Below are positions 5,251-32,609 of a stretch of DNA of 64,000 nucleotides, piece by piece. The DNA comes from an uncultured Collinsella sp. (GTDB lineage: Bacteria > Actinomycetota > Coriobacteriia > Coriobacteriales > Coriobacteriaceae), in the NCBI GenBank assembly GCA_900547125.1, contig URFU01000001.1:7731-71730 (forward strand). Reading direction: 5' to 3'. A program made the translations under genes and the position numbers. The notes under the pieces are model-generated. The model had not been told where the DNA came from. It made no database searches and saw nothing but the letters and a program-made list of their open reading frames with translations. The stretch's first letter is position 1; the number at the start of each line of letters is the position of its first letter.

Positions 5251-5290
5251 GGCGCCCGCCGGCAACATCGCCGACGGGCGCCGTTTTCTG
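5251..5290 (+). terminator. Rho-independent terminator after galT.
   Basis: GC hairpin ggcgcccgccgg…ccgacgggcgcc followed by gttttctg. The same hairpin motif recurs after galM (33868). Confidence 0.5.
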
Positions 5291-5319
5291 ATGCAAGGGT
5301 AACTAATTTGCACCAAAAC

Positions 5320-15990: not shown

Positions 15991-16140
15991 CGTTTGTCTC
16001 GATCTGTAACATCTAGCCGAGTTTTTTGGTCCTAGCTGTTACAGATTGAGACGAACAGGATTGCTCTTTCCGAAGAATCTAAATCTGTAACACGTAGCCC
16101 GCTTTTGACCGTCTACCTGTTACAAATCGAGACAAACGGA
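15991..16140. repeat. Palindromic hairpin element family A, two tandem units (A-loop and B-loop types).
   Basis: Unit 1 is cgtttgtctcgatctgtaaca[tctagccgagttttttggtcctagc]tgttacagattgagacgaacag. Unit 2 is aatctgtaaca[cgtagcccgcttttgaccgtctacc]tgttacaaatcgagacaaacg. Confidence 0.85.
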
Positions 16141-17176: not shown

Positions 17177-17235
17177 GCCTTCCACGCCAACCTGCTTCCC
17201 AACTATTCCCCGCGCCCATGGCGCATCGTACATAC

Positions 17236-17410
17236 ATTGATAACGTGCTCATGATACCCGAGCCATATACCACAACATGAAAACTTCTGTCAATCAAAAC
17301 CGCTTACCGAACAAATACAACCGTTCGCGGCTGTTTGAAGTTGTTTTGTTTCTATACATCCCAGCCGGATGTTAACGTGCTCATTGTCAAATGTTCACGT
17401 GCTCATTTTG
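17236..17410. promoter_or_regulatory. Three TGTTAACGTGCTCAT-type operator candidates.
   Basis: tgataacgtgctcatga (17240), gatgttaacgtgctcattg (17368) and aaatgttcacgtgctcatt (17389). Confidence 0.5.
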
Positions 17411-17520
17411 GTTCTAATCATTTTAAGATAGTGTTTATCGGGCTTTTTCACCGCTAAACGCTAACCAGGGAGCCTCCTGAGCGCAAACGCACAATATCGA
17501 ACAGCGAGACGAGAGGGTGT

Positions 17521-18969: not shown

Positions 18970-18983
18970 CGCATCGCCTCGCT

Positions 18984-19040
18984 TTCCCCCGAGAGGGGAG
19001 CGGCCCTATGCGATACAAACCCAGCCGCTCCCCTCTCTCT
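18984..19040 (+). other. Intercistronic inverted repeat between bgl2 and IICB2.
   Basis: cccgagaggggagcggc … gccgctcccctctctctggg. Confidence 0.4.
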
Positions 19041-19141
19041 GGGACCGACCCCGCCTGCACCCGGGCTTTTAGCAAGCGGGAGACCATATAGGTTTTCAAC
19101 GTCCATGCCATTAAGATTTCATGCAAAGAGGAGCGTGAACT

Positions 19142-20902
19142 ATGGAATCGATCGTTAAGTTCTTGGAGAAAGGTCAGCCGTACTTCGACAAGGTCTCTAA
19201 GAACATCTACCTTCAGGCCATTAAAGACGGCTTTTTGGCAGCAATGCCCATCATCCTGTCTTCTTCTGTCTTCCTGCTTATTTCGACCCTGCCGGGCGTT
19301 GTCGCCACGGTCGGCGGCTTTACGCTGCCCGACTGGTGGAACGTCGACGTCGTGAACTTCTGCAACAAGGTTTACAACTTCACGATGGGCGTCGTGGGCA
19401 TCATGGTCGCCGGCACCACCGCAAGCGCGCTGACCGGCTCCAAGAACCGCCGCATGCCTGCCGGCAAGGCCATCAACGCCACGAGCACCATGGTCGCCGC
19501 CATGTGCGCTATGCTCATCTTGGCCGTTACCCAGACGAGTGCCAAGATCGACGGCGCCGATGTCTCGGTGTTCTTTACCGACAACATGGGCACCAAGGGC
19601 CTGCTGAGCTCCTTTGTCGCCGCATTTGCCACGGTCAACATCTATGCCTTCTGCATTAAGCGCGACATCACCATCAAGCTGCCCAAAGAAGTCCCCGGCG
19701 CCATCGCCCAGAACTTCCGCGACATCTTCGCCTTCAGCTTCTCCATCCTGTTTGTCGCCGTCATCGACGTTATCTGCCGCACCTGCTTGGCCGTCCCGTT
19801 TGCCAACGTCATCTCCACGCTGGTGAGCCCGCTGTTCGCCGCCGCCGATTCCTACGCCGGCCTCGCCCTCATCTGGTTCATGATCCCGCTGTTCTGGTTC
19901 ATGGGCATCCACGGCCCCTCGGTCGTTAAGCCTGCCCTCAACGCTGCGCTGTTTGGCAACATCACCACCAACCTCGCCACGCTGCAGGCCGGCGGTCACC
20001 CCGCCCTCGCCCTGACCGAGAACTTCGGTAACTACATCGGCGAACTCGGCGGCACCGGCGCCACGTTCATTGTCCCGATCATTTTCCTGCTCTTTATGCG
20101 CTCCAAGCAGCTCAAGGCCGTCGGCAAAGCCTCTGTCGTACCCGTGATGTTCGCCGTCAACGAGCCGCTGCTGTTCGCCGCGCCCATCATCCTCAACCCG
20201 TACTTCCTGATCCCGTTCCTGTTTGCCCCCGTGGCCAACGTCCTCATTGGTAAGTTCTTCATCGACTTTTTGGGCATGAACGGCTTTATCTATGCCATGC
20301 CGTGGGCACTCCCCGGACCGATCGGCACCTTCATCGACACCAACTTCCAGCCGATTTCTCTGGTCCTGGTTGTCGTCCTGCTGGTCGTTGACTTCTTGAT
20401 CTACTACCCGTTCTGCAAGGCCTACGACAACGTCCTGTGCAAGCAGGAGGCCGAGACCCTGGCCGAAGAAGAGGCCGAGGAGACCAAGGCCGTCAAGACC
20501 GCTGCCGCCCCCGCCGTTGAGGCTCCCGTTGTCGAGACCGCTTCTGCCACTGAGGCCTCCGCAGCTCCGTCCGCCCTTAAGGGCAAGGATCTGAGGGTTC
20601 TGGTTCTGTGCGCTGGCGCCGGCACCTCTGCACTGCTCGCCAACGCGCTTAAGGAAGGCGCCGACGAGCTGGGCATCGACATTACCGCCAACGCCGGTGC
20701 CTACGGCAGCCACTACGCCATCATGGACCAGTACAACGTCATCGTCCTGGCTCCGCAGGTTCGCACCTATTACAACGAGATGAAGGCCGACACCGACCGC
20801 CTGGGCATCACGCTGCTGTCGCCCAAGGGCAAACAGTACATCGACCTCACTAAGGATCCCAAGGGTGCCGTCGCCTGGATCGAGGAAAACCTCGAGGCAT
20901 AA
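19142..20902 (+). CDS. PTS lactose-family IICB, module 2.
   Basis: Paralog of 12599..14374 (MESIVKFLEKGQPYFDKVSKNIYLQAIKDGF…) with a C-terminal IIB domain (RVLVLCAGAGTSALLA). RBS AGGAG. Confidence 0.9.
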   Translation: MESIVKFLEKGQPYFDKVSKNIYLQAIKDGFLAAMPIILSSSVFLLISTLPGVVATVGGFTLPDWWNVDVVNFCNKVYNFTMGVVGIMVAGTTASALTGSKNRRMPAGKAINATSTMVAAMCAMLILAVTQTSAKIDGADVSVFFTDNMGTKGLLSSFVAAFATVNIYAFCIKRDITIKLPKEVPGAIAQNFRDIFAFSFSILFVAVIDVICRTCLAVPFANVISTLVSPLFAAADSYAGLALIWFMIPLFWFMGIHGPSVVKPALNAALFGNITTNLATLQAGGHPALALTENFGNYIGELGGTGATFIVPIIFLLFMRSKQLKAVGKASVVPVMFAVNEPLLFAAPIILNPYFLIPFLFAPVANVLIGKFFIDFLGMNGFIYAMPWALPGPIGTFIDTNFQPISLVLVVVLLVVDFLIYYPFCKAYDNVLCKQEAETLAEEEAEETKAVKTAAAPAVEAPVVETASATEASAAPSALKGKDLRVLVLCAGAGTSALLANALKEGADELGIDITANAGAYGSHYAIMDQYNVIVLAPQVRTYYNEMKADTDRLGITLLSPKGKQYIDLTKDPKGAVAWIEENLEA

Positions 20903-20937
20903 TACGCTGACGCCACCTGCCGCTCGCAGAAAATAAT

Positions 20938-20978
20938 GGCCCGCGCATCGATGTGTGATGCGCGGGCCATTTTGTTTA
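20938..20978 (+). terminator. Rho-independent terminator after IICB2.
   Basis: ggcccgcgcatc gatgtgt gatgcgcgggcc followed by attttgttt. Confidence 0.65.
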
Positions 20979-20993
20979 GACCGCACCCGTCCT

Positions 20994-21064
20994 CCTGTTC
21001 ATCTCAATCTGTAACATCTAGCCGAGTTTTCGGGTCCCACCTGTTACAGATTGAGATGAACAGG
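20994..21064. repeat. Palindromic hairpin element family A, single unit.
   Basis: cctgttcatctcaatctgtaaca[tctagccgagttttcgggtcccacc]tgttacagattgagatgaacagg. The arms are perfect over 23 bp. Confidence 0.85.
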
Positions 21065-21074
21065 CCGAGCACGT

Positions 21075-22076
21075 CTACACCCGCAGGTCCTTTACGCTGG
21101 AACGCTCGACCAACACACCCGAGACAAGCGTACGGCTTCTGGAGCTCGGGGCTTCCAGACCTGCGACGACCTCGTTAAGCGCACGGATGCCCAGCTCGCG
21201 GTGGCGAAACTTCACCGACGTCAGAATCGAGTTGGGAATCGTCTTGTAGAGCTCATCGTCGAAGCCGATCACGGACACGTCGTCGGGCACACTCAGACCC
21301 TTGTCACGTAGAGCCATCATCACGCCGTTTGCCATGCAGTCGTTAGCAGCGAGGACCGCCGTACAATCGGGTTTATCGGCAAGCACAAGGCCCGCGGCAT
21401 AGCCACTATCCGCATTCCAATCGCCTTGCAGAGGCTCGGGCGGCTCAATGCCACGCGCCTCGAGTGCCGCACGCCAACCTTTCATACGACACTGGCTCGA
21501 CAGCGACTCTTTCTTACCAGAGACGAAGTATACGTTCTTGTGCCCACGATTTAAGAAGTACTCGCACGCCATGCGCGCACCACCCTCTTGATCGTCACTA
21601 ACGGTAGAGCAGGTAGGATGCTCCATCGGCGTGATAATCACCGTCTTGAGGCCCTTCGGTGCCTCAAAGGTATCAAAGTCATCGACCATCTGACGCAGGT
21701 TGAAGATCATGCCATCAACAGGCAGTTGCGACATCCTACGCGCCGCTTCGGCAAGGGTCATCTTCTCCCCCGCGCGCTTCTTAATCATCGTAAGCGCAAA
21801 ACCGCGTTCTTCGGCGGCATCGGCGATACCGTCAATCATGTCCACGGCACCGCCCGACAAGTGGAACAGCACCACGCCGATGCACCCGTAACGACCCAAT
21901 TTGAGCGAACGCGCGGCAAAGTTGGTTCGAAACCCGAGCGCCTCCATTGCGGAATGAACCTTATCGCGTGTCGACTCTCGCACGCTATCGGGCTCGTTGA
22001 TCACACGCGAAACCGTCTTGAGAGAAACACCCGCAGCAATCGCCACGTCGTTCATTGAGACATTTTTCTTGTCCAT
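21075..22076 (-). CDS. LacI-family repressor, module 3.
   Basis: HTH MNDVAIAAGVSLKTVSRVINE. Likely start at MDKKNVS (cat 22074-22076). The ORF track extends to 22154. Confidence 0.8.
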   Translation of the reverse strand: MDKKNVSMNDVAIAAGVSLKTVSRVINEPDSVRESTRDKVHSAMEALGFRTNFAARSLKLGRYGCIGVVLFHLSGGAVDMIDGIADAAEERGFALTMIKKRAGEKMTLAEAARRMSQLPVDGMIFNLRQMVDDFDTFEAPKGLKTVIITPMEHPTCSTVSDDQEGGARMACEYFLNRGHKNVYFVSGKKESLSSQCRMKGWRAALEARGIEPPEPLQGDWNADSGYAAGLVLADKPDCTAVLAANDCMANGVMMALRDKGLSVPDDVSVIGFDDELYKTIPNSILTSVKFRHRELGIRALNEVVAGLEAPSSRSRTLVSGVLVERSSVKDLRV

Positions 22077-22215
22077 CGTTGCCACTACTTCTCCAGTCGG
22101 TTTTGCATCGCTTGCTTTTTGCGTTCTAGCATACACTACCTGCCCGACTGACAAATCAGCCGTTTATCGGACGATATCGACCGTTCACCTGTAAATCCTT
22201 GTTGCTCTTCCAAAA

Positions 22216-22262
22216 ATGTCTTACGTTGTCATTAACGAAATGACAACGTTGTCATTTCGCAA
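22216..22262. promoter_or_regulatory. Perfect palindromic operator TGACAACGTTGTCA plus a flanking half-site.
   Basis: tgacaacgttgtca at 22241-22254, and ttacgttgtca at 22221-22231. Confidence 0.6.
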
Positions 22263-22360
22263 TGCCTTCCTTAATCAGGAAGGTTTCCGGGCAGTCCTGA
22301 CCATCCATCGACGACCAGTTCCATCCACATGCATCGCGCATCAAGTAGCAAAGGAGCTTT

Positions 22361-24139
22361 ATGGACGCCATCGTAAAGATGCTCGAAAAGCATCAGCCGT
22401 TCTTTGAGAAGATCTCGAGGAACATCTACCTCCAGGCTATTAAGGACGGATTCCTTGGGTGCATGCCCATCGTCCTCACCTCTTCGATCTTTCTGCTGAT
22501 CGCCACGCTTCCCGGCGTGGTCGGCATCACGCTGCCCCAGCCGCTCATCGACTGGTGCAACAAGCTGTACAACTTCACCATGGGCGTCATGGGCATCATG
22601 GTTGCCGGCACCACCGCCAAGAACTTTACGGCTTCCATGAACCGTCGCATGCCCGCCGGCAAGGTGCTCAACGACGGCTCCACCATGGTTGCCGCCCAGT
22701 GCAGCATGCTGCTGCTCGCCGTTACGCAGTTCACCACCAAGTTCAACGGCTCCGAGCTTTCTGTCTTCGATTGCACCAGCATGGGTACGCGCGGTCTGTT
22801 CTCGGCCTATATCGCCGCGTTCATTACCGTGTGGGTCTATAAGTACTGCGTCTCGCGCGATCTGACCATTAAGCTGCCCAAGGAGGTTCCGGGCGCCATC
22901 GCACAGAACTTCCGCGACATCATCCCCTTCGGTGGCGCTGTCATCATTTGCGGCATCATCGATGTGGTTGTGCGCAACCTCATGGGCGTTCCGTTCTCCG
23001 AGCTGCTTATCAAACTGCTCTCCCCGCTCTTCACTGCGGCAGAGACCTACCCCGGACTCATCCTTATTCAGGCGGCCACCGCGTTCTTCTGGTTCATCGG
23101 CGTCCACGGCCCCTCGATTGTCCAGCCGGGCATCGACCCCATCCGTCTTGCCAACCAGGCCGAGAACCTGCAGGTTCTGCTGGCAGGCGGCCACCCCGCA
23201 CACTCCCTCACCTTTAACATGTCGCTCGTGGGTGAGTTCGGCGGCACCGGCGCCACGTTCATCGTGCCGCTTCTGCTGATTCTCTTTATGAAGTCCAAGC
23301 AGCTCAAAGCCGTCGGTAAGGCCTCGATTGTTCCTGTTGCCTTCGCCGTCAACGAACCGCTGCTCTTTGGCGCGCCGATGATCCTTAACCCTTACATGCT
23401 CATCCCCTTTGTTGCCGCCGGCTGCGTCAACGTAAGCGTTGCCAAGTTCTTTATCGACAATGTGGGCATGAACGGCTTCTCCTTCGTGGTGCCTTGGGCC
23501 ACCCCTGCCCCCATCGGCATCTTCATCACCACGAACTTCCAGCTTATCGCCCTGGTATTTGTTGCAATCATCATCTTGCTGGACGCCATCATCTACCTGC
23601 CGTTCTTGAAGGCATACGATAAGCTGCTCTGCGACCAGGAGGCCGAGCGCGCCGCCGAGCTGGGTCTCGAGTCCGATGGTGCCGCTGCCATCGCCGCCAA
23701 CGCCCCTGCGCCCGCTGTCGAGCAGACCACCGCTTCCGTCGAGACGACCGCTGCCGCCGCCGGCAGCGAGCCTGTCGCCGATCAGCCCGAGCCCGCTGCC
23801 GATGCATCCGCCAAGAAGGATGTCGACGGCCTGAAGGTCCTCGTCCTGTGCGCCGGCGCCGGCACCTCTGCCATGCTTGCCAATGCCATCAAGGAAGGTG
23901 CCGCGCAGACCGGAGAGAACATCGCTTCCTCCGCAGGCGCCTATGGCCAGCACACTGCCATCATGGATCAGTACGATGTCATCGTGCTCGCCCCGCAGGT
24001 TCGTAGCTACTACAACGACATGAAGGCCGACACCGATCGTCTGGGCATTAAGCTGCTCGCTCCGCGCGGCAAGGAATATATCGACCTTACTCGCGACCCC
24101 GCTGGCGCCATCAAGTGGCTCCGCGAGAACCTCGACTAG
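22361..24139 (+). CDS. PTS lactose-family IICB, module 3.
   Basis: MDAIVKMLEKHQPFFEKISRNIYLQAIKDGF…, C-terminal IIB (LKVLVLCAGAGTSAMLA). RBS AAGGAG. Confidence 0.9.
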   Translation: MDAIVKMLEKHQPFFEKISRNIYLQAIKDGFLGCMPIVLTSSIFLLIATLPGVVGITLPQPLIDWCNKLYNFTMGVMGIMVAGTTAKNFTASMNRRMPAGKVLNDGSTMVAAQCSMLLLAVTQFTTKFNGSELSVFDCTSMGTRGLFSAYIAAFITVWVYKYCVSRDLTIKLPKEVPGAIAQNFRDIIPFGGAVIICGIIDVVVRNLMGVPFSELLIKLLSPLFTAAETYPGLILIQAATAFFWFIGVHGPSIVQPGIDPIRLANQAENLQVLLAGGHPAHSLTFNMSLVGEFGGTGATFIVPLLLILFMKSKQLKAVGKASIVPVAFAVNEPLLFGAPMILNPYMLIPFVAAGCVNVSVAKFFIDNVGMNGFSFVVPWATPAPIGIFITTNFQLIALVFVAIIILLDAIIYLPFLKAYDKLLCDQEAERAAELGLESDGAAAIAANAPAPAVEQTTASVETTAAAAGSEPVADQPEPAADASAKKDVDGLKVLVLCAGAGTSAMLANAIKEGAAQTGENIASSAGAYGQHTAIMDQYDVIVLAPQVRSYYNDMKADTDRLGIKLLAPRGKEYIDLTRDPAGAIKWLRENLD

Positions 24140-24214
24140 TTCCTCCCTCTGTTGGTGCCCGGATCCCCAGTTCGGGCACCTCTCCCTATTCGTATCCCAC
24201 AGAAAGGATGACTC

Positions 24215-25636
24215 ATGACCAACCCCATGCAGTTCCCCGACGGCTTTGTGTTTGGCGGCGCCACCGCCGCTTACCAGGTTGAGGGCGAGACCCGCACGCA
24301 CGGCAAGGGCAAAGTGCCCTGGGACGATTTCCTGGCTGCTCAGGGTCGCTTCTCCCCCGACCCCGCAAGCGATTTCTACAACAAGTATCCGGTCGATATC
24401 GACTTGTGCCAGCGCTTTGGCATCAACGGTATTCGCGTCTCCATCGCTTGGAGCCGTATCTTCCCCAGTGGCACCGGCGAGATTAACCCCGAGGGCGTCG
24501 CTTTCTATCACGAGCTTTTCGCCACCTGCAACAAAGCTGGCGTTATCCCCTATGTCACGCTCGATCACTTTGACACGCCCGAGGCCTTCTACCAGGACGG
24601 CGGCGAGGGCTTCCTGACGCGCACGACCATCGACGCCTTCGTCGAGTACGCCAAGTTCTGCTTTGCCGAGTTCACCGAGGTCAAGCACTGGTTTACCTTT
24701 AACGAGATTCCCGCAACCGCCGAGGGCAGCTTTATCGTCGGCAACTGGCCGCACGGCGAGAAGTACCGCCTGGACAAGGCCTTCCAGCTCATGCACAACA
24801 TGATGGTGGCCCACGCCAAGGCTGTCGTCGCCTTCCATGAGGGCGGCTTTGAGGGCGAGATCGGCATTGTCCAGAACCTGGAGCCCAAGTATCCCCTCGA
24901 CCCCAACAACGCCGCCGACTGCGAGGCAGCTCGCATGGCCGACGTCATCAACAACCGCTGGGTACTCGACGCCACCTTCCGCGGCCACTATGCAGCCGAC
25001 ACCATGGAGGCTGCGACCAAGCTGGCCCATATCGCCGGCGGCGAGCTCGACGTCCGCGACGAGGACATCGCCGCGCTGACCGCCGCGCTCCCCTACAACG
25101 ATTGCCTGGGCGTCAACACCTACAAGTGCCAGTTCCTGCGTGCCGCCGAGGGCGAAAACGACATCAACCACAATGGCACCGGCGACAAGGGCTCCTCGCG
25201 CTGGTTCCTCAAGGGCGTGGGCGAGTCATGCGTGCGCGAAGGCGTACCCACCACCGATTGGGACTGGATCATCTATCCCGAGGGCCTCTACGACCTGCTG
25301 CTCCGCATTAAGAACGATTACCCCAACTACAAGAAGATCTACATCACCGAGAACGGCATGGGCTATAAGGACGACTTCGAGGATGGCTTTATCGACGACG
25401 CCCCTCGCATCGACTACATGCGTCAGCATCTCGCATGGATCCTCAAGGCAATCGACGGCGGCGTAAACGTCGACGGTTACTTTGTGTGGTCGCTGCAGGA
25501 CCAGTTCTCCTGGACCAACGGCTATAACAAGCGTTACGGCCTGTTCTACATCGACTTTGAGACCCAGAAGCGCTACCCCAAGGCGAGCGCGTACTGGTAC
25601 AAGAACGTCGCGGAGACCGGCCTGCTTATGGCCTAA
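24215..25636 (+). CDS. GH1 6-phospho-beta-galactosidase, module 3.
   Basis: Very close to lacG1: FVFGGATAAYQVEGETRTHGKGKV, YITENGMGYKDD, SWTNGYNKRYGLFYIDFETQKRYPK. Confidence 0.85.
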   Translation: MTNPMQFPDGFVFGGATAAYQVEGETRTHGKGKVPWDDFLAAQGRFSPDPASDFYNKYPVDIDLCQRFGINGIRVSIAWSRIFPSGTGEINPEGVAFYHELFATCNKAGVIPYVTLDHFDTPEAFYQDGGEGFLTRTTIDAFVEYAKFCFAEFTEVKHWFTFNEIPATAEGSFIVGNWPHGEKYRLDKAFQLMHNMMVAHAKAVVAFHEGGFEGEIGIVQNLEPKYPLDPNNAADCEAARMADVINNRWVLDATFRGHYAADTMEAATKLAHIAGGELDVRDEDIAALTAALPYNDCLGVNTYKCQFLRAAEGENDINHNGTGDKGSSRWFLKGVGESCVREGVPTTDWDWIIYPEGLYDLLLRIKNDYPNYKKIYITENGMGYKDDFEDGFIDDAPRIDYMRQHLAWILKAIDGGVNVDGYFVWSLQDQFSWTNGYNKRYGLFYIDFETQKRYPKASAYWYKNVAETGLLMA

Positions 25637-25658
25637 CTTTTGCCGCATACCCCCTGTC

Positions 25659-25708
25659 GGCCGCATGCGAATCCCTCCACGGGTTCGTATGCGGCCTTTT
25701 TTGTTTTT
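25659..25708 (+). terminator. Rho-independent terminator after bgl3.
   Basis: ggccgcatgcgaa…ttcgtatgcggcc followed by ttttttgttttt. Confidence 0.65.
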
Positions 25709-25725
25709 GGTGAGCCCGTGCGGGC

Positions 25726-25870
25726 CGTTTGTCTCGATCTGTAACATCTAGCCAAGTATTTCGGCCCTAGCTGTTACAGATCAAGACAAACAGAGCGCCC
25801 GAGCAGAAATATCTCAATCTGTAACACGTAGCCCACTTTTAACCGTCTACCTGTTACAGATCAAGACAAT
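25726..25870. repeat. Palindromic hairpin element family A, two tandem units.
   Basis: ccgtttgtctcgatctgtaaca[tctagccaagtatttcggccctagc]tgttacagatcaagacaaacag, then atctcaatctgtaaca[cgtagcccacttttaaccgtctacc]tgttacagatcaagacaat. Confidence 0.85.
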
Positions 25871-25921
25871 AAGATAGTCAAATCCAAACTTTCCAAGCAG
25901 TTATGAAGCATGGTTTCTAGT

Positions 25922-25996
25922 TTTCGGTATCACGAACATGCTTTCGGTGTCATTTAATGGTATTATGATATCGAAAGTATGTTCGTGATACCGAAA
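25922..25996. promoter_or_regulatory. Dyad-symmetric promoter/operator of the Fic gene.
   Basis: 18-bp perfect inverted repeat tttcggtatcacgaacat / atgttcgtgataccgaaa. It brackets a nested imperfect inverted repeat and a TATTAT(GAT) -10-like box. GAAAGGAG RBS follows. Confidence 0.55.
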
Positions 25997-26004
25997 GGAG
26001 CCGC

Positions 26005-27237
26005 ATGCGCCAGTTCGATTACACCACAGTCCCAGCGGAACTCGAGGCAACTCCAATCACCAACCTCCTCCTCTCGATACGCGAGCATAAAGGCCGACAG
26101 CTTGCTCTGAGTCAAGTTAAACCCGAACTTCTATCGTCACTTATGGAGGAAGCTAAGATCCAAAGCACCCAATCCTCCAACGGACTTGAAGGAATTGTTA
26201 CCACCCAAAAAAGACTCAAAGCAATCATGGCGTATTCCGCCAAGCCAAGCTCCCGCGCAGAGGAAGAAATCGCTGGATACCGAGATGTGCTGTCGCTTAT
26301 TCACGAGCAACACGATTCCATTCCCGTAACGCCATCGGTCATTTTGCAGTTGCATCGTGACCTCATGGCGCACACGGCAATCTCGTATGGGGGCCATTGG
26401 AAAGATAGCGATAACGAAATCATCTCCATCGACAATCAAGGCAATCGATTTGTGCGCTTTAGGCCGCCTTCGGCCCTAGCAACCCCCGGACTTATCGAAG
26501 AAGCCTGTCGGTCCCTCAACGACGCCTTATCTCGTCAAGTTTGCGACCCCCTCCTTATATCATTCCGCTTCATCTTCGATTTTGTCAGCATTCATCCCTT
26601 CAACGATGGCAATGGCAGGATGAGCCGGCTCCTTACAACGCTGCTACTCGAAAAGACTGGATACGACGTTGCGCGTTACATCAGCATCGAACGACTTATT
26701 GAAGACAACAAGGCGCTCTACTACAACGCCCTCGCTGCAAGCTCCACTGGATGGAATGAAAATCAAAACACCGAAGTACCCTTTATCCGTTTCATGCTCG
26801 GAACAACCCTGGCCGCCTACCGACAGCTCGAGCAGCGTACCTTAATTGAATCAAGCACTCGTCCCATGTCGAAGCAAGCGCGCATCGCTGTTCTATTTCA
26901 ACAGAGACCCGGCGTCATTAAGAAATCCGACATCCGATCCAACTGCCCCGATATCAGCGAGGTTACCGTTAAACGAACCCTCGGTCAGCTTGTTAGTTGC
27001 AGCGCAATCGAAAAAACAGGAGCGGGTCGTTCGACGGGCTACATACTCAAAGACGTCCATGCTCTAGAACTATTCTTGCAATCCACAATACCCGATAGCG
27101 AGGCCGCAATAACAAAAGAGGCTCCAAAGGATAAGCTCCTTGAACGTGTAAACCACGCCGAGGATGAAAGCAGAGAGGGGCTCTATGAAGACTACGATTC
27201 ATTCTCAAGGGACATAAAGACGAAATACGGAGTCTAG
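26005..27237 (+). CDS. Fic-family protein (class II, with N-terminal inhibitory helix), putative AMPylase, with a C-terminal winged-helix-like domain.
   Basis: Fic motif HPFNDGNGRMSRLL. Upstream inhibitory motif S-x-x-x-E-G (SSNGLEGI). GC is visibly lower than in neighbouring genes. Confidence 0.85.
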   Translation: MRQFDYTTVPAELEATPITNLLLSIREHKGRQLALSQVKPELLSSLMEEAKIQSTQSSNGLEGIVTTQKRLKAIMAYSAKPSSRAEEEIAGYRDVLSLIHEQHDSIPVTPSVILQLHRDLMAHTAISYGGHWKDSDNEIISIDNQGNRFVRFRPPSALATPGLIEEACRSLNDALSRQVCDPLLISFRFIFDFVSIHPFNDGNGRMSRLLTTLLLEKTGYDVARYISIERLIEDNKALYYNALAASSTGWNENQNTEVPFIRFMLGTTLAAYRQLEQRTLIESSTRPMSKQARIAVLFQQRPGVIKKSDIRSNCPDISEVTVKRTLGQLVSCSAIEKTGAGRSTGYILKDVHALELFLQSTIPDSEAAITKEAPKDKLLERVNHAEDESREGLYEDYDSFSRDIKTKYGV

Positions 27238-27278
27238 TCATATCCCAGAATAGCCTCATCCTTGTTGCCCAAAGTTAT

Positions 27279-27686
27279 TTACGCGTCATTGTGAAGCGAT
27301 AACCCCTGCGCCGGCAGGGGGGGGCAGAAGTATCGCCTGCCGATCTTGCTGGAGTCGGCGATGAGGTAGCGCGTATCGGCCTTGCTAAAGGCGAGCTGCT
27401 GGATGCGGCCCTCGTCCATATTGGACGTAGATACGTCACCGTCCAAGATGCCGTTGGCACCGATAAACGCCGCGTCAATGCCCAGCGCACGCAGGGTATC
27501 CTCGGCCGTGGGTCCCACAAAGGCGGCGGTGCGGCGACGGTACATGCCGCCTACCAGGCACAGGTCGCAGTCTTCGCGCGTCTCGAGCAGGTTAATCACC
27601 GAGAGCGAATTGGTCACATAGATGGAAGTCAGCTTGTCGGTGACTCGGAGAGAGCGCCAATGCGATCTCACGTCGGTTGCGCTCAT
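27279..27686 (-). pseudogene. Truncated duplicate of the DeoR-family regulator 31818..32609 (C-terminal sugar-binding domain only; no HTH).
   Basis: Protein VTNSLSVINLLETREDCDLCLVGGMYRRRTAAFVGPTAEDTLRALGIDAAFIGANGILDGDVSTSNMDEGRIQQLAFSKADTRYLIADSSKIG is nearly identical to the 31818 regulator. By eye, ~90% nucleotide identity over ~270 bp (27361-27625 vs 31951-32215). Confidence 0.7.
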
Positions 27687-27781
27687 TGTCTCAACTTGAT
27701 ACTCAACGAAATACGGCCCCGCAGCTCAATAAGCTGCGGGGCCCTACTATACACCGACGAATCAACGACGGAGTGCATCCA

Positions 27782-29476
27782 CTATTTGGCCAGCTCCTGA
27801 ACGATCCAGTCAATTGCGCCTTCGGGATCGTTGGTAAGGTCGATATACTCCTTGCCCCTTGTGGTGAGCAGTTTAATTCCAAGGCGATCGGTATCGGCCT
27901 TCATAGCGTCATAGTACATGCGTGCCTGGGGTGCCAGAACAATCACGTTGTACTGATCCATCGTCTCATAGTGGCTTCCGTACGCACCGGACTGAGAAAC
28001 CAGATCGATACCCTTAGCAGCGGCACCTTCGCGAAGAGCATTTGCCAAGAGAGTCGAAGTGCCAGCACCCTGGCAAAGCACAAGCACGCGGATCTGCTCC
28101 GCCTTGTCCTTTACCGCCTCGAGAGCTTTTGCGACATTTTCCTGTGCGGCAATAGCATCTGCATCCGAGGTTCCTGCAGTCTCCTTTGCAGACTCTTCCA
28201 AACAAAGCTGATGGTCATACGCCTTGCAGAACGGATAGTAAATCACAAAGTCAACGACCAACAGCACTGCCATCAATACGAGAGAACGCAGATCGAGACC
28301 CGTGGTGAGGAATGCACCGATTGGGCCGGGAAGCGCCCACGGCATGGTATACATGGGGGCGTTCATTCCAATGACGTCAATGAAAAATTTACCGATAATG
28401 GCGTTGACCATAGGAGCCACTAGGAAGGGCACGAACATATAGGGATTGAGAACAATCGGCATACCGAAGATAACGGGCTCGTTAACTCCAAAAATCACCG
28501 GGATAATCGATGCCTTGCCCATGGCTTTAAGCTGCTTGGAGCGCATAAACATGATCAGGATAATAGGAACGATGAACGTGCAGCCAGAACCGCCCAGACC
28601 GCCGATGAAGCTTGTAAAGTCCTGCGTGAGAGCAATTGACGGGTGTCCACCTGCTTGGAAAACCTCAAGATTGGTAACGGTATTGCCGTAGAGCGCAGCA
28701 TTGATCGGACTCATGACAACCGAAGCACCGTGGATACCCATAAATTGGAAAAGCGCGACCGCGCCTTCGATAAGCGCCATGCCAGGATAGGTATCGACCG
28801 CGGAGAACAGCGGCGAGATGAGAGCGGATACCAAATTGGCGAACGGCACAGCAAGCAGCTTGCGGCTCGCAAGATCGATAAAAGCGCACGCAAGGATCGA
28901 AAACCCAAATGCAAAGATATCGCGAAAACTCTGCGCAATAGAGCCAGGGACCTCTTTGGGAAGCTTGATCGTCACATTATGGCTAATGCACACCTTATAG
29001 ATATTAACGGTCAAGAATGCGGCTACGAACGCAGCGAGAAAACCCTTGGTTCCCATATAGCCGGTTTCAAAAACAGATGTATCTGCTCCGACAATCGAGA
29101 CAACATCGTTCGTCACCGATAGCAAGAGCATGCCGCACATGGCACAAACCATGCACGAGGTGGGGTTGAGAGATTTACCCGAAGGCATGCGACGGTTCAT
29201 CGACATGGCAAGTGAGCTCGCCGTGGTGCCGGCCACCATAATGCCAAGAAGTCCCATGGTATATGCATAGATTTTATTGAAGAAATCCAGCACCTCAGAC
29301 GGAAGCGTGATGCCTACATAGGCAGGGAGCGTCGAAAGAAGAAGGAACAGGCTCGAGAACAGCACAATTGGCATATTCGAGAGAAAGCCATCCTTAATCG
29401 CCACCAGATAAATGTTCCTCGAGATTTTGTCGAAGAGGGGCTGGTGTTTTTCAAGGAATTTGACGATAGCGTCCAT
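27782..29476 (-). CDS. PTS lactose-family IICB, fourth and more divergent paralog.
   Basis: MDAIVKFLEKHQPLFDKISRNIYLVAIKDGF…, C-terminal IIB (RVLVLCQGAGTSTLLA). Start at cat 29474-29476 with an AAAGGA RBS. Lower GC than modules 1-3. Confidence 0.85.
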   Translation of the reverse strand: MDAIVKFLEKHQPLFDKISRNIYLVAIKDGFLSNMPIVLFSSLFLLLSTLPAYVGITLPSEVLDFFNKIYAYTMGLLGIMVAGTTASSLAMSMNRRMPSGKSLNPTSCMVCAMCGMLLLSVTNDVVSIVGADTSVFETGYMGTKGFLAAFVAAFLTVNIYKVCISHNVTIKLPKEVPGSIAQSFRDIFAFGFSILACAFIDLASRKLLAVPFANLVSALISPLFSAVDTYPGMALIEGAVALFQFMGIHGASVVMSPINAALYGNTVTNLEVFQAGGHPSIALTQDFTSFIGGLGGSGCTFIVPIILIMFMRSKQLKAMGKASIIPVIFGVNEPVIFGMPIVLNPYMFVPFLVAPMVNAIIGKFFIDVIGMNAPMYTMPWALPGPIGAFLTTGLDLRSLVLMAVLLVVDFVIYYPFCKAYDHQLCLEESAKETAGTSDADAIAAQENVAKALEAVKDKAEQIRVLVLCQGAGTSTLLANALREGAAAKGIDLVSQSGAYGSHYETMDQYNVIVLAPQARMYYDAMKADTDRLGIKLLTTRGKEYIDLTNDPEGAIDWIVQELAK

Positions 29477-29655
29477 AACACATCCTTTCATGATTCCCGG
29501 GCACACAACGATTTATCCGGACTCAACCGTCGTCGTCCCCGTTTGTATCCACTTATGTAAGTGAATACGTTCTTGTGCGAAATGTAATATCATTTGCGCG
29601 ATTTGTCATAACCAATTCTTTTTCCGCTTTGTCGATATGTCAAGAATTCAAATAC

Positions 29656-29752
29656 TTATTCGGTGAACGGTAGTTGATTAATATAATGTTTTCCCAGCTA
29701 AAGGCTATTTTTTCCGAGCAATACAATAAGCTTGCAACCGTTCACCGATTGG
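29656..29752. promoter_or_regulatory. Inverted pair of the GGTGAACGGTAGTT motif in the divergent promoter region.
   Basis: cggtgaacggtagtt at 29661-29675 and aaccgttcaccg at 29736-29747. The region is AT-rich. Confidence 0.55.
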
Positions 29753-29832
29753 ATATAACATATTGAATATATTGTTGTAACAATATTAGAGACAATGTCA
29801 CAAGCCTGTCGTTCTAGTCAAAGGAAGTAACA

Positions 29833-30753
29833 ATGCCCAAACGATTACTGAACATGTCCGCATCCGATTTTGCCGCCACGTCATCCATGGATCTAAAACA
29901 GGCAATTCTGGCTTCCGAGGGACGTACCATCATGGCGGAAAACGTACCCTCTTCCCAATTTCTCGGCGGCGTTACTAATGCAGAAATCGAACGTGCCGCA
30001 GGTGCCGACCTGCTTCTGTTTAACGCGCTCGATGTGTTCGATCCAGTTATTGCCGGTATTCCAGATGATCTCAATGAAAACCCGGTCACTTGGGTGAAGC
30101 GAGCATGCGGAAGGCCCATTGGCGTCAATCTGGAGCCAGTTGATAACGAGGCAGAGATGTCTGAATCCCGAACGGAAATCCCCATGGGTCGTCGCGTCTC
30201 TCCCAAGACCTTAGAAAAGGCTAACGAACTCGGATTTGATTTTATCTGCCTGACGGGCAACCCTGGAACCGGCGTCTCCAACGATGCAATCGCCCATTCG
30301 ATTAAACTCTCCAAAGAGCATTTCAATGGCCTGGTCATAGCCGGAAAAATGCATGGAGCGGGCGTTGCGGAACCTGTCATGACGCTCGAAATTGCGCGCA
30401 AGTTTGTTGACCTCGGCGTCGATATCCTTCTCGTGCCAGCCCCCTACACCGTCCCTTGCTTCCAAGAAGCAGACCTGCGCGCCATCGTAGACTTTGTACG
30501 ATCCCACAACGTAGGCAAGTCAATTGAAGAGAAGGTTCTCGTCATGGCGGCGAACGGGACGAGTCAAGACTCCTGCGACAGCGAGACCATTAAGAAAATA
30601 GGCCTTGCAGCAAAAGCAGCCGGCGCTGACCTCCAACATATCGGGGACTCCATGAACGGTATTTGCCTGCCCCAGAATATCTTCACGCTCGGACAAGCCC
30701 TTCGTGGATACAGGCATCAGATCGTCATGCTGAGCCGCTCTGTGATACGTTAA
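29833..30753 (+). CDS. Hypothetical protein, possibly a TIM-barrel sugar-phosphate enzyme. No confident family assignment.
   Basis: 306-aa ORF with good coding periodicity. Gly-rich phosphate-binding-like loops (LTGNPGTGVS, IAGKMHGAG). Sits divergent from IICB4 and upstream of a GntR regulator. Confidence 0.5.
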   Translation: MPKRLLNMSASDFAATSSMDLKQAILASEGRTIMAENVPSSQFLGGVTNAEIERAAGADLLLFNALDVFDPVIAGIPDDLNENPVTWVKRACGRPIGVNLEPVDNEAEMSESRTEIPMGRRVSPKTLEKANELGFDFICLTGNPGTGVSNDAIAHSIKLSKEHFNGLVIAGKMHGAGVAEPVMTLEIARKFVDLGVDILLVPAPYTVPCFQEADLRAIVDFVRSHNVGKSIEEKVLVMAANGTSQDSCDSETIKKIGLAAKAAGADLQHIGDSMNGICLPQNIFTLGQALRGYRHQIVMLSRSVIR

Positions 30754-30807
30754 GGTTACCTTGCCCACGTTACATCCCGACTGAGGCAACCATCAGGTAT
30801 AACCAAC

Positions 30808-31545
30808 ATGCAAACTGAGGCTCTAATGCTCGATACACACGAAAAACGGCCACTCTATTTACAGCTCACCGACGCGCTGCTCAAGCAGATCGTCGATGAA
30901 TATCAAGCAGACGATAAACTTCCAACAGAAATGGAACTCTGCGACGAATACGCCGTAAGCAGAACAACCGTCCGACTTGCCATGAGTGAGCTGGAGCGTC
31001 GTGGAAGTATCTATCGAATCCAAGGTAAGGGGTCGTTTGTTGCACCGAAACGCGTTAGCGAGCTCAATTCACTTTTAGACTTTGACTTTGCAAGCCATTG
31101 CGATGGCGTTGATCCAGATGCCATTACCAAACATTTCGGCGGCCTCACATCAGGTCGTCCAATTTCCGTAATGATGCTCCAACAATTTGGATGTCAAAGT
31201 CGCGACAAAATTCAGCGTCTTGAATTGACCTACGAACTTGAAGGCAGCTTCATAGGCGCTGATACGTTCTTCATTTCAAAGTCGCGCGTTCCAAATAACC
31301 AGTTAGATTTTCAGGCATTTAGCAGAATCATGGACGACTTGTCCAAGTCTATCCAATCTGTTAGGGAAAGCTATAGAGCACGTCAGCTTAGCGATTCCGA
31401 AGCCAGTAATTATGGTGTTGCAAAACTTCCGGTCATCGAACTGACTCATTATGCTTACGACTCCGGAGGCAAACTAATCTCAATTGTCTGCCGCACCGTC
31501 TTAACTGGGCGAATCCCTTATCAAAACTTTATTTTCAAGTCCTAA
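30808..31545 (+). CDS. GntR/HutC-family transcriptional regulator (UTRA effector domain).
   Basis: N-terminal winged [43 protein letters not shown]. Possible start at 30826. Confidence 0.8.
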
Positions 31546-31556
31546 TGTTCTTTTTC

Positions 31557-31700
31557 TTTTGTCTCGATCTGTAACACGTAGCCGAGTTTTTAAGTCCTAA
31601 CCGTTACAGATCGAGACAAACAAGGTAGGCCCCGCCGAATTGTCTCAATCTGTAACATCTGGTTGGTGGTTTCACCCCTACCTGTTACAGGTTGAGACGA
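31557..31700. repeat. Palindromic hairpin element family A, two tandem units.
   Basis: ttttgtctcgatctgtaaca[cgtagccgagtttttaagtcctaacc]gttacagatcgagacaaac, then ttgtctcaatctgtaaca[tctggttggtggtttcacccctacc]tgttacaggttgagacga. Confidence 0.85.
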
Positions 31701-31817
31701 TTTGATAGTGGAGTCCTTATTTGCGCGTCATATCGCGTAGCGCTGACGCGCTGGTTTCCACAATGACAGGAGGTAAAAGTCCTCCCGCATCACCCGTTGG
31801 CAATCCCGTAGCGATAA

Positions 31818-32609
31818 CTAGCAAATAACCTGCGTGTGTTCCTCGATGGCGGCACGATCCTCGGCGGCGATGCCCGGCTCGCACACCACGGCGTCCAAAT
31901 TGTCCAGGCGGCAGAAGGTGTAGAAGTCGCGCTTGCCGATCTTGCTGGAGTCGGCGATCAGATAGCGCGAGTCGGCCTTGCTAAAGGCGAGCTGCTGGAT
32001 GCGGCCCTCTTCCATATTGGATGTAGACACGTCGCCGTCCAGAATGCCGTTGGCACCGATAAACGCCGCGTCGATGCCCAGCGCACGCAGGGTATCCTCG
32101 GCCGTTGGTCCCACAAAAGCGGCGGTGCGGCGACGGTACATGCCGCCCACCAGGCACAGGTCGCAGTCTTCGCGCGCCTCGAGCAGGTTAAACACCGAAA
32201 GCGAATTGGTCACAATGCGCAGGCGAAACGCCGGCAGCATCGAGGCCATCTGCTCAACCGTGGTGCCCGTGCCCAAAAAGATGGTCGAGCCTTCCTCGAT
32301 AAGCTCCACAGAACGGCGCGCAATCTGCAACTTTTCCTCGGCATGCTTCGTGCGCTTTTCGCTGTGCGAATACTCATGGCGCAGCATAGCGTGTGGACGG
32401 CCCTGCGCACTGCGGGCTCCGCCGTGCACGCGCTCGATCTCGCCCAGGCTCGCAAGCTCCTCAAGGTCACGGCGGATCGTCATATCCGAGACACCTAACG
32501 CATCCGAAATCTCCTTGACCGAGACCGTTCCCTGTTCCTCGAGCAGCTGCCGAACCTTATCCTGTCGCTCCGCTTTAATCACGATGAGTCCTCGCTGTTC
32601 CACGCTCAC
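31818..32609 (-). CDS. DeoR-family transcriptional regulator (LacR/AgaR-like).
   Basis: N-terminal DeoR HTH (VSVKEISDALGVSDMTIRRDLEEL) plus a C-terminal DeoR sugar-phosphate-binding domain. It is the parent copy of the 27279 fragment. Confidence 0.85.
   Translation of the reverse strand: MSVEQRGLIVIKAERQDKVRQLLEEQGTVSVKEISDALGVSDMTIRRDLEELASLGEIERVHGGARSAQGRPHAMLRHEYSHSEKRTKHAEEKLQIARRSVELIEEGSTIFLGTGTTVEQMASMLPAFRLRIVTNSLSVFNLLEAREDCDLCLVGGMYRRRTAAFVGPTAEDTLRALGIDAAFIGANGILDGDVSTSNMEEGRIQQLAFSKADSRYLIADSSKIGKRDFYTFCRLDNLDAVVCEPGIAAEDRAAIEEHTQVIC

Follow-up and report, generated by a model that had tools for sequence, protein, structure and literature searches.

A Fic gene at positions 26005-27237 of the 64-kb stretch of Collinsella DNA analyzed here (the window) probably forms, together with its promoter, a one-gene, self-contained module of the toxin type, akin to CccR and SoFic, in which a promoter carrying four binding boxes is repressed by the gene's own product. 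Sequence comparison and analogy make the Fic protein itself most likely the ligand of its four-box operator, since the pattern of boxes and recognition-helix residues matches that of the published autorepressors CccR and SoFic. We infer the DNA binding, toxicity, target and trigger of the Collinsella protein, as well as the place where its transcription starts; the system type itself is not new, and the locus belongs to a known kind. The gene and its protein comprise the following elements.

26005-27237, + strand: wHTH-Fic gene, 410 aa (Pfam Fic 2.6e-15, PADLOC SoFic model, PDB 8uqu, AF2)
26176-26193, + strand: inhibitory motif S58-N-G-L-E62-G63 (SNGLEG, residues 58-63), class II alpha-inh, by sequence reading
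26593-26628, + strand: Fic catalytic motif H197PFNDGNGRMSR208 (HPFNDGNGRMSR, residues 197-208), by sequence reading
26860-27054, + strand: predicted C-terminal winged helix (wHTH; residues 286-350), from AF2 and a weak Pfam DIP2311-like_C match
27055-27234, + strand: C-terminal tail, aa 351-410, of which aa 369-408 resemble a Phd/ParD-type antitoxin C-terminus

The 410-aa ORF scores 57 bits with Pfam PF02661 (Fic; cut-off 24, E 2.6e-15). Its catalytic motif fits HxFx(D/E)GNGRxxR and is invariant in 30 of 30 homologues (50-95% identity), as are S58, E62 and G63 of the inhibitory motif, which aligns with SNRLEG of 8uqu, lies in the same chain as the Fic core, 135 residues ahead of H197, and is placed by AF2 at the end of a predicted helix (40-61). 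The preliminary description had read HPFNDGNGR and an upstream SxxxEG in this ORF, and both are there, in the right order. That order, the family-wide invariance and the AF2 and PDB matches support assignment to the class II, cis-autoinhibited Fic enzymes. By analogy with the S59/E63-R203 contact of CccR (PMC9755527), Glu62 is predicted to contact the second Arg of the motif and block productive ATP binding, and an E-to-G change should deregulate the enzyme, as E73G of SoFic would lead one to expect (bioRxiv 10.64898/2026.07.09.737422). The AF2 model (pLDDT 84 for the protein, ~87-95 across wHTH residues 290-348) has helices at 290-300, 307-313 and 319-331, and strands at 335-338 and 345-348 that make a two-strand wing. 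Foldseek matches the model to 8uqu, SoFic (3eqx/3zcn) and CccR (7xux), with full-length alignments to 3eqx and 7xux, which supports a SoFic/CccR architecture of Fic domain plus wHTH at the level of the predicted fold. The gene is under purifying selection (dN/dS 0.14-0.18; 0.10-0.22 in the Fic and wHTH parts).

The gene occupies a strain-variable slot, whose landmarks are these.

25659-25696, + strand: intrinsic terminator of the upstream GH1 (6-phospho-beta-glucosidase) gene, a 16-pair stem followed by a T-run
25714-25874, no strand: two hairpin repeat units, ~80-nt period, left edge of the variable slot, by repeat analysis
27277-27340, + strand: leftover of an adjacent or alternative cassette, at the right-hand boundary of the Fic slot, by comparison of slot alleles
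27331-27616, - strand: internal deoR fragment, left end of a PTS indel, ~92% identical to 31922-32214
27782-31545, both strands: cargo of this second low-GC indel, PTS EIICB (-), DUF7916 (+) and GntR regulator (+), from Pfam and composition
31818-32609, - strand: full-length DeoR regulator, conserved right anchor of the slot (Pfam)

Against a background of 30 genes with mean GC 0.604, the Fic gene has GC 0.505 (z -3.1), GC3 0.55 (z -2.8) and a codon fit of z -2.5; the DNA upstream of it (25870-26004) is 38.5% GC. The low GC noted earlier by eye for gene and promoter is thereby borne out quantitatively. It extends past 27700, however: PTS-EIICB, DUF7916 and GntR (27782-31545) match the Fic gene in AT-richness (z -2.4 to -4.6), and the sole interruption of the low-GC zone is the deoR fragment, at 61% GC. 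The 4.47-kb PTS indel (27340-31807) is present or absent independently of Fic, and loci without it join window position 27339 directly to 31808. As Fic and the deoR'/PTS block represent two indels independent of each other, 25870-27700 is ruled out as one island; of the two boundaries first proposed for it, the upstream hairpin units stand, and the truncated deoR is instead the edge of the separate PTS indel. The hairpin repeat (14 half-sites in the window, 0.19 expected) occurs at 4 intergenic places, and its copy number at the GH1-side junction ranges from 1 to 5 between strains; the GH1 terminator is conserved in all slot alleles.

Among 52 metagenomic contigs selected by means of the neighbouring DeoR gene as anchor, Fic is present in 31 and absent from 21, where the slot is empty or contains a Phd/ParE toxin-antitoxin pair or an AlbA_2-ATPase-wHTH gene. 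The last of these has also left a trace at the right edge of the slot: the remnant at 27277-27340, common to Fic, toxin-antitoxin and some empty alleles, combines a single box, ATTTACGCGTCAT, with the terminal codons (GRGQKYRL) of an AlbA_2/HATPase_c_4/wHTH gene that is intact, with its own box cluster, at locus L098. Deviant composition combined with presence or absence at a fixed site between GH1 and DeoR marks Fic as an accessory cassette; neither uniform composition nor fixed presence across the genus was seen. The nearest relatives outside Collinsella reach at most ~56% identity in the genome scan and ~60% (a Bifidobacterium protein) in the protein search; they are scattered over many phyla and also occur on plasmids and phages. 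Composition, patchy presence and scattered relatives all agree with the horizontal acquisition that had been proposed, as regards origin but not as regards a recent gain by the source strain: Fic-less alleles retain degenerate operator remnants and so arose by loss, which makes Fic old in the C. aerofaciens complex.

There is a small chance that Fic is mainly a transcription factor, or a reversible housekeeping regulator that AMPylates and de-AMPylates a translation or division factor, and is neither toxin nor defence. CccR does alter the expression of other genes (PMC9755527), SoFic constitutively de-AMPylates EF-Tu and has been proposed as a dual transcriptional and translational regulator (bioRxiv 10.64898/2026.07.09.737422), and the Collinsella gene sits among sugar operons, outside a recognised defence island. 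Against this, the gene is dispensable, as the Fic-less contigs show, its slot alternatively accommodates a ParE toxin-antitoxin pair or a Schlafen/AlbA_2 ATPase, its relatives head type I restriction-modification operons besides traveling on plasmids and phages, and the window holds no box beyond those of the Fic promoter. That promoter contains the following.

25921-25932, + strand: operator box A1, TTTTCGGTATCA, conserved in 37 Collinsella loci
25941-25952, + strand: operator box A2, CTTTCGGTGTCA, over the expected -35 position (GGTATCA in most strains)
25958-25966, + strand: extended -10-like element TGGTATTAT, between A2 and B1, by sequence reading
25966-25977, - strand: operator box B1, TGATATCGAAAG, in inverted orientation, where transcription is expected to start, by box comparison
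25986-25997, - strand: operator box B2, TGATACCGAAAG, in inverted orientation and in overlap with the Shine-Dalgarno sequence, by box comparison

A perfect 18-nt inverted repeat (25922-25939/25979-25996) that brackets a second repeat and a TATTAT (25961-25966) had been described here as a nested palindrome, and the repeats are present as described, within 25922-25996; outer and inner repeat together make 32-nt arms (25922-25953/25965-25996) that are 91% complementary. What the palindrome resolves into, however, is four predicted protein-binding boxes of 12 nt, of the TTTCGGTATCA type, oriented > > < < and spaced 20/25/20. The Shine-Dalgarno sequence AAAGGAG is at 25994-26000. A strict two-hexamer sigma-70 scan finds no promoter at the palindrome, so that the extended -10 reading rests on comparative position: a TGnTAnnAT or TAnnAT element occupies the equivalent place in homologues. 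The transcription start would lie over box B1. The spacers between boxes are also complementary in Collinsella and at the homologous loci L163 and L165, a property that an operator does not need.

All 37 Collinsella loci keep the four boxes, and the DNA directly upstream diverges in 89-91% alleles. Of 43 homologues at 45-56% identity, 23 show at least three boxes with 17-23-nt spacing, a pattern absent from all 215 shuffles and seen once in 215 random windows. Across many phyla, homologues with 45-58% identity are preceded by the four-box layout, and in many homologues the fourth box overlaps the ribosome-binding site. Within the 64-kb window, no further box exists at 0-1 mismatch, and the 17 matches with 2 mismatches are at chance level (11 +/- 3.5); a regulon within the window is rejected on these counts. 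In carrying inverted-repeat boxes over the -35/-10 region of its promoter, the Collinsella gene resembles those of the wHTH-Fic autorepressors.

That the palindrome instead works as an RNA (or single-strand DNA) hairpin exerting translational or attenuation control, with no repressor involved, is improbable. A transcript from upstream of A1 would form a 33-bp stem burying part of the Shine-Dalgarno sequence: the predicted RNA fold of the 96-nt region has -50.6 kcal/mol (z -10 relative to shuffles), the stem extends to the AAAG of AAAGGAG, the spacers are complementary in the loci just mentioned, and two A-to-G changes private to the source strain maintain G-U pairs. In 10 distant four-box loci, however, the boxes are 85% complementary and the spacers 45%, which points to a set of binding sites and not a hairpin as the thing conserved. 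In nearly every homologue the -10-like element also lies within the loop, which leaves the left arm outside the expected transcript; the three boxes or other layouts present at many loci could not make a single hairpin; and a strong terminator stands ~225 nt upstream. A known RNA family was considered and rejected: an Rfam search of 25500-27500 at E <= 1 yielded nothing above threshold, giving only sub-threshold miRNA-precursor models of the sort that match any long hairpin.

The operator model for the Fic promoter runs as follows. The C-terminal winged helix would bind the four 12-nt boxes, A1 and A2 upstream of the extended -10 (A2 over the -35), B1 at the point where transcription begins, and B2 over the ribosome-binding site. 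Because boxes cover the -35, the start and the ribosome-binding site, Fic would repress its own synthesis and keep the protein level low, and Glu62 of the N-terminal alpha-inh helix would additionally block the catalytic site in cis. Some trigger (phage infection or loss of dimer control in relatives) would relieve repression or inhibition, upon which an essential target (in relatives EF-Tu, for SoFic, and FtsZ, for CccR) would be AMPylated and growth arrested. CccR represses its own promoter through its C-terminal HTH at AGATAATCAT-N26-ATGATAATCT (PMC9755527), and SoFic, as a dimer, binds the 100 bp that precede its start and has EF-Tu as a target of AMPylation (bioRxiv 10.64898/2026.07.09.737422). 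EcSofic is toxic (PMC12249575); SoFic-type genes have been reported, in work cited in PMC11514479, as an anti-phage system active against T5, and a SoFic gene in S. thermophilus gave minimal protection (PMC11514479). An anti-phage role for the Collinsella protein would be pure analogy.

What connects box and protein is a putative recognition code. Box class follows one residue of the wHTH recognition helix, that at its T[IV]xR position: proteins with E there have TCTGCxTCA or TCTCCxTCA boxes, those with Q have AATTTAATCA, those with K (K323 in the Collinsella protein) have TTCGGTATCA, and T- and A-type proteins have different boxes again. The K rule was predicted from Collinsella and a 44%-identical Lactiplantibacillus plasmid gene; it held in three K-type homologues chosen as a test (L163, L165 and L166, 56-58% identity), and two closer, Collinsella-like relatives, L174 and L167, follow it as well. 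Both box class and recognition residue track phylogeny, so shared descent could explain part of the covariation; the distant Lactiplantibacillus case makes it unlikely to explain all of it. If the code is true, K323E would abolish binding to TTCGGTATCA and confer affinity for a TCTGCATCA operator, and K323Q would redirect the protein to AATTTAATCA. An operator geometry of the tightly autoregulated toxin type had been suspected at the outset, and the suspicion is strongly supported by the cross-phylum box layout, the box/helix covariation, CccR autorepression and SoFic promoter binding.

This covariation also bears on the idea that the boxes are the operator of a trans-encoded host regulator, the Fic wHTH serving target binding or control of catalysis, which we consider quite improbable. 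[quoted passage not shown] A host regulator does not readily account for a box class that tracks a residue of the Fic recognition helix, for boxes that accompany the gene across phyla, plasmids, phages and unrelated neighbourhoods, for the confinement of the box motif, at 0-1 mismatch, to this one place in the window, or for the CccR and SoFic experiments, which indicate self-binding. Among the distant homologue loci no neighbouring gene recurs in all, and the only recurrent neighbours are hsdM and hsdS (12-13 loci); no separate regulator, therefore, travels with the Fic gene, and a conserved partner antitoxin or regulator gene is ruled out. Nor is this a two-gene type II toxin-antitoxin module: there is a single ORF, and none in the ~100 nt downstream. 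Very improbable, finally, is a palindrome that serves a mobile cassette as its structural end or as a site of recombination and lies before Fic without bearing on its regulation: the slot is indeed a cassette hotspot with flanking hairpin repeats, the L167 Fic ORF lies between direct copies of the right half-operator, and an IS110-family element is inserted nearby in some strains, but start-codon distance, the loop position of the -10 and overlap with the ribosome-binding site are conserved in homologues regardless of genomic context, the alternative cassettes (toxin-antitoxin pair, AlbA_2 gene) lack this palindrome at their edges, and no recombinase is associated with it.

Set beside known systems, the putatively self-repressed Collinsella module is a relative at some distance. 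Like it, CccR (Yersinia pseudotuberculosis, PDB 7XUX; PMC9755527) is a class II Fic protein with S-x-x-x-E-G N-terminal of the core and a C-terminal HTH; CccR represses its own promoter, as a dimer, through inverted 10-nt boxes ending in ..ATCAT over the -35/-10; Foldseek aligns it with the Collinsella model over the full length. The two proteins are ~19-20% identical (phmmer E 1.6e-6), CccR has two boxes with a 26-nt spacer where Collinsella has four (inner spacer 11 nt, outer-to-inner 31 nt), and CccR lacks the antitoxin-like tail. CccR is moreover a T6SS-secreted effector of a Gram-negative organism, whereas Collinsella is a Gram-positive actinobacterium in which T6SS-type export would not be expected. 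SoFic (Shewanella oneidensis, PDB 3EQX/3ZCN) shares the order of dimerisation helix, alpha-inh, Fic core and wHTH and the standalone gene, and binds the 100 bp upstream of that gene, but is ~20% identical, and its inhibitory motif ends in N (SSEIEN) and not in G. The Collinsella protein matches the PADLOC profile of the standalone SoFic gene (PDLC03963, 3.2e-35, residues 18-352 against profile positions 25-355 of 361), phage protection being known from relatives only; its 42.1 bits with the NCBIfam SoFic equivalog NF046030 fall far below the cut-off of 550 and make it a SoFic relative, not an orthologue. EcSofic has a separate downstream 47-aa antidote gene, AS1 (PMC12249575); Collinsella has no room for an AS1-like gene before the next feature and has a fused 60-aa tail instead. 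The closest solved relative is 8UQU (Bordetella bronchiseptica Fic, a structural-genomics entry; E 5e-69, residues 22-347), which shares SNRLEG, HPFPDGNGRMSR and the wHTH sequence, with a TM of 0.9 over the solved N-terminal domain, but has 366 aa and no tail; we found no literature on its function or operator. In VbhT/VbhA and FicT/FicA (class I) and in Phd/Doc, a Fido-fold toxin is likewise restrained by a helix containing an inhibitory Glu and is autoregulated, but inhibitor and DNA binding reside on a separate, operon-encoded antitoxin; in Collinsella the inhibitor and the predicted DNA-binding domain are in the Fic chain, without a partner gene.

The tail is one feature for which we found no description in the literature consulted. 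Its residues 369-408 share 50% identity over 40 aa with the antitoxin encoded in the alternative ParE cassette (E 7e-11); the tail is conserved down to homologues at 74% identity, and has dN/dS of 0.14-0.25 and low AF2 confidence. The tail alone matches no Pfam family, and a PDB sequence search with the related antitoxin gives only weak matches, to Rv2865 (0.18) and ParD (1.1). tblastn finds no ParE toxin or AlbA_2 gene elsewhere in the 64-kb window, and no ParE gene lies downstream of the more divergent tail-bearing homologues, which are located between a gal operon and a LacI-PTS-GH1 operon. With the odds against it, we entertain the notion that the tail functions as an antitoxin-type module joined to a wHTH-Fic, in a slot of competing toxin cassettes and under a four-box unit that is portable. 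It could act in trans to neutralise toxins of the ParE type, and such an anti-addiction function would let the Fic cassette displace the toxin-antitoxin cassette; or it could be a labile degron or sensor, such that proteolysis of the repressor would bring about derepression and activate the Fic toxin. If this is true, toxin-type cassettes would compete and recombine at the slot, and the four-box operator with its one-residue code would be a general portable control unit of this Fic subfamily, the type I restriction-modification operons that it heads included.

The basic picture of how CccR/SoFic-type systems work is unchanged by these findings. Winged helices at the C-terminus are frequent among Fic enzymes (~1800 such proteins in InterPro; bioRxiv 10.64898/2026.07.09.737422), the subfamily of the Collinsella protein has at least 8000 matches in the protein search, and among wHTH-Fic enzymes DNA binding has so far been examined for CccR and SoFic only. 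The comparisons made here suggest that four boxes around the core promoter, and self-repression through them, may be the rule for a large, cross-phylum Fic subfamily, that a single recognition-helix residue may reveal box specificity, and that the same Fic/four-box unit heads type I restriction-modification operons in some Firmicutes. Collinsella aerofaciens is an abundant human gut species, and slots such as this one, which swaps toxin-type cassettes (Fic, ParE/Phd, AlbA_2 ATPase), are useful as markers of strain diversity and possibly of phage resistance.

The wHTH-Fic gene of the window, whose source belongs to the Collinsella aerofaciens complex, specifies a protein matching that of C. aerofaciens DSM 13712 at 100% identity; in a genome scan, 37 GTDB Collinsella species representatives carry it at 91-100% identity. 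Its features and surroundings are:

25714-25874: two hairpin repeat units, preceding Fic
25921-25932: box A1, direct, TTTTCGGTATCA
25941-25952: box A2, direct
25966-25977: box B1, inverted
25986-25997: box B2, inverted
26005-27237, + strand: Fic gene, 410 aa, Pfam Fic domain
Fic residues S58-N-G-L-E62-G63: inhibitory motif, read from the sequence
Fic residues H197PFNDGNGRMSR208: catalytic motif, read from the sequence
27331-27616: internal deoR fragment, 286 bp, after Fic, ~92% identical to the resident deoR

The assignment of an autoinhibited class II Fic ORF in the preliminary description stands: the ORF and both motifs are present, and the motifs do not vary among 30 aligned homologues (50-95% identity). 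The closest solved relative is the Bordetella bronchiseptica Fic protein 8UQU (E 5e-69, residues 22-347). An AlphaFold model (pLDDT 84) comprises an N-terminal helical part, the Fic core, a classic winged helix (290-348) and a poorly predicted tail (351-410). It aligns over its full length (Foldseek) with SoFic of Shewanella oneidensis (3EQX, 3ZCN) and CccR of Yersinia pseudotuberculosis (7XUX), and the PADLOC profile for SoFic, a single-gene anti-phage system, matches residues 18-352 (3.2e-35). The score against the NCBIfam SoFic equivalog model is far under the cut-off; the protein is a SoFic family relative and no orthologue.

The promoter contains the previously noted perfect 18-nt inverted repeat (25922-25939/25979-25996), bracketing a second repeat and TATTAT; the two repeats together build a palindrome whose 32-nt arms are 91% complementary, and TATTAT falls in its 11-nt loop. 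Treating the palindrome as one hairpin was rejected: it is made of a 12-nt box repeated four times, the starts lying 20, 25 and 20 nt apart. Between A2 and B1 there is an extended -10-like element (TGGTATTAT), and B2 overlaps the Shine-Dalgarno AAAGGAG. Alone among 38 strains, that of the window has G for A at both 25940 (spacer) and 25949 (box A2); DSM 13712 (locus L028) has the 25949 G without the 25940 G. The two substitutions weaken the DNA palindrome and preserve G-U pairs if the left arm is transcribed.

All four boxes are kept in 37/37 Collinsella loci; in alleles of 89-91% identity the 40 nt directly upstream are heavily diverged and the boxes undiverged. Among 43 homologues of 45-56% identity (Firmicutes, Bacteroidota, Verrucomicrobiota, Lentisphaerota, Spirochaetota, Desulfobacterota, Actinomycetota), 23 have at least three boxes in the same arrangement, versus 0/215 shuffles and 1/215 random windows. 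The -10-like hexamer likewise lies between boxes 2 and 3, and box 4 on the RBS. Box sequences are lineage-specific, yet their ..TCAT end is constant. At ten clear four-box loci complementarity is 85% in the boxes and only 45% in the inter-box spacers; thus what has been conserved is a group of binding sites for a protein and not an RNA stem. Complete 32-nt complementarity is seen in Collinsella and in a small number of relatives (L163, L165). Translational control by an RNA hairpin is conceivable in Collinsella only; the non-complementary spacers of other lineages and the location of the -10 in the loop speak against it.

Which protein binds the boxes? Neighbourhood comparison found no gene common to all distant loci, and the boxes accompany the Fic-type gene onto plasmids and phages. 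Box class tracks a single recognition-helix residue of the Fic protein, x in T[IV]xR (K323 in the window): E goes with TCTGCxTCA or TCTCCxTCA, Q with AATTTAATCA and K with TTCGGTATCA. The K rule was derived from Collinsella and a 44%-identical Lactiplantibacillus plantarum plasmid gene with the same box; K-type homologues of 56-58% identity were then chosen from a protein search and their contigs fetched, and 3/3 (L163, L165, L166) have TTCGGTATCA-type boxes in the four-box layout, as do the closer Collinsella-like relatives L174 and L167. One T-type and one A-type protein have different boxes again. CccR, a class II Fic protein carrying an HTH at its C-terminus, represses its own promoter via AGATAATCAT-N26-ATGATAATCT (PMC9755527); the SoFic dimer binds the 100-bp stretch that precedes its own start codon, and SoFic AMPylates EF-Tu (bioRxiv 10.64898/2026.07.09.737422). 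The lack of a common neighbour, the portability of the boxes, the residue-box match and the CccR and SoFic experiments together make self-repression by the Fic wHTH the best explanation, and a probable one. If a separate regulator of the host used the boxes as its operator, neither their moving with the gene nor a recognition code in Fic's own helix would be easily explained. The early suggestion of an autoregulated toxin-type gene gains support from the cross-phylum boxes, the recognition-residue match and these precedents; for the window's Fic, we infer DNA binding, transcription start, toxicity, target and trigger.

In Clostridia/Lachnospiraceae, wHTH-Fic is the first gene of an apparent type I restriction-modification operon at 12 loci (L049, L051, L053, L055, L058, L061, L063, L064, L067, L068, L071, L072). 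A ~500-aa hsdM-like gene adjoins or overlaps its stop, followed by an hsdS-like gene (both recognised by eye from sequence); the -35, TTGACA, has boxes upstream of it and one further box downstream. Fic may be the controller of these operons.

Because the 37 genome loci were chosen for having Fic, 80 metagenome contigs were fetched through the neighbouring DeoR gene. In the 52 with both GH1 and DeoR anchors, the slot between them holds:

Fic: 31/52 contigs
no Fic, hairpin units only or nothing: 10/52
no Fic, PTS block only: 4/52
no Fic, Phd-like antitoxin and ParE toxin: 5/52, plus L132, seen separately
no Fic, AlbA_2/HATPase_c_4/wHTH gene: 2/52

This distribution makes Fic an accessory cassette and its slot a hotspot of toxin-type genes. 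That the gene has a regulatory role alone, with no toxicity, is conceivable but sits badly with its dispensability and with the kinds of gene it is associated with; the notion that the palindrome is a mobile-element end is contradicted by its constant placement with respect to the start codon.

Horizontal acquisition, as proposed earlier, agrees with the absence of Fic from 21/52 contigs and with its deviant composition: in the suggested GC and codon-usage profile, with 30 background genes (GC 0.604 +/- 0.031) as reference, Fic has GC 0.505 (z -3.1), GC3 0.55 (z -2.8) and a codon-fit z of -2.5. Neither uniform composition nor constant presence of the gene at this position, the two outcomes that would have spoken against the proposal, was found. 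The proposed downstream limit of the low-GC island, 27700, does not hold, since low GC extends through PTS-EIICB, DUF7916 and GntR genes to 31.5 kb. Hairpin units upstream and a truncated regulator downstream are both present, but the deoR fragment belongs to a second, independent indel (27340-31807, 4.47 kb, low GC) that also contains PTS-EIICB, DUF7916, GntR and two hairpin units. In 12/37 genome loci and many metagenome contigs 27339 is fused directly to 31808, and all four combinations of the Fic and PTS indels are found. This block, which roughly half of the DeoR-anchored contigs carry, has the deoR fragment at its left end, joined at microhomology ..CGCCTGC, and the two hairpin units at its right.

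The hairpin repeat (~80-nt units, arms ..ATCTCGATCTGTAACA/TGTTACAGATCRAGA..) is dispersed over four intergenic junctions between sugar-utilisation modules (15997-16132, 21002-21056, 25732-25866, 31562-31697), with 14 half-sites in the window versus 0.19 expected and 1 to 5 copies at the GH1-Fic junction depending on strain; REP/MITE-like element, terminator and recombination substrate are candidate identities. Upstream of Fic (16148-25636) lie two tandem paralogous LacI/PTS-EIICB/GH1 modules (~68-70% DNA identity), the distal one swapped in some strains for another GH1 paralogue (74% identity).

In the Fic-less alleles L098, L119 and L141 a degenerate Fic operator remains, and thus the ORF was lost. 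In L167, the locus of a 74%-identical Fic homologue in a different Collinsella-like species, a right half-operator copy, CCGAAAACGTGTTCGTGGTACCGAAAG, lies just 3' of the Fic stop (5262-5296 vs 3955-3992), so that the ORF sits between ~30-nt direct repeats, a possible route to deletions that leave an operator remnant. The slot of L132, L133, L135, L136, L109 and L139 holds a Phd/YefM-like antitoxin (88 aa) overlapping a ParE-family toxin (101 aa). L098 and L121 carry the AlbA_2 (Schlafen-like) gene with HATPase_c_4 and a C-terminal wHTH; its own cluster of at least six TTTACGYGTCAT-type boxes precedes it, which suggests that wHTH proteins of another family, with ..GTCAT boxes, also regulate themselves. 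A remnant of this gene, intact in L098, persists at 27277-27340 (27277-27289 and 27310-27340) as one operator box and the last codons. Directly downstream of Fic, at the G-run 27318-27325, the metagenome contigs L081 and L118 have a 1.54-kb insertion encoding an IS110-family-like transposase (recognised by eye).

Non-Collinsella homologues stop at about residue 348; Collinsella Fic is 60 residues longer. In the ParE cassette that takes up the same slot in other strains, the Phd-type antitoxin has a C-terminus to which Fic residues 369-408 are 50% identical (40 aa aligned, E 7e-11). The tail is retained in homologues down to 74% identity, which occupy another junction, between galT and a LacI-PTS-GH1 operon, where the loci examined have no ParE gene. 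Its dN/dS of 0.14-0.25 indicates purifying selection; that it acts as a trans-antitoxin or degron is speculative. No description of such a tail was found in the literature consulted on wHTH-Fic relatives. The window system belongs to the known wHTH-Fic autorepressor kind represented by CccR and SoFic. What the present analysis adds is an operator of four conserved boxes, a simple code for their recognition, an antitoxin-like tail fused to the protein, and a slot that is a hotspot for cassettes.
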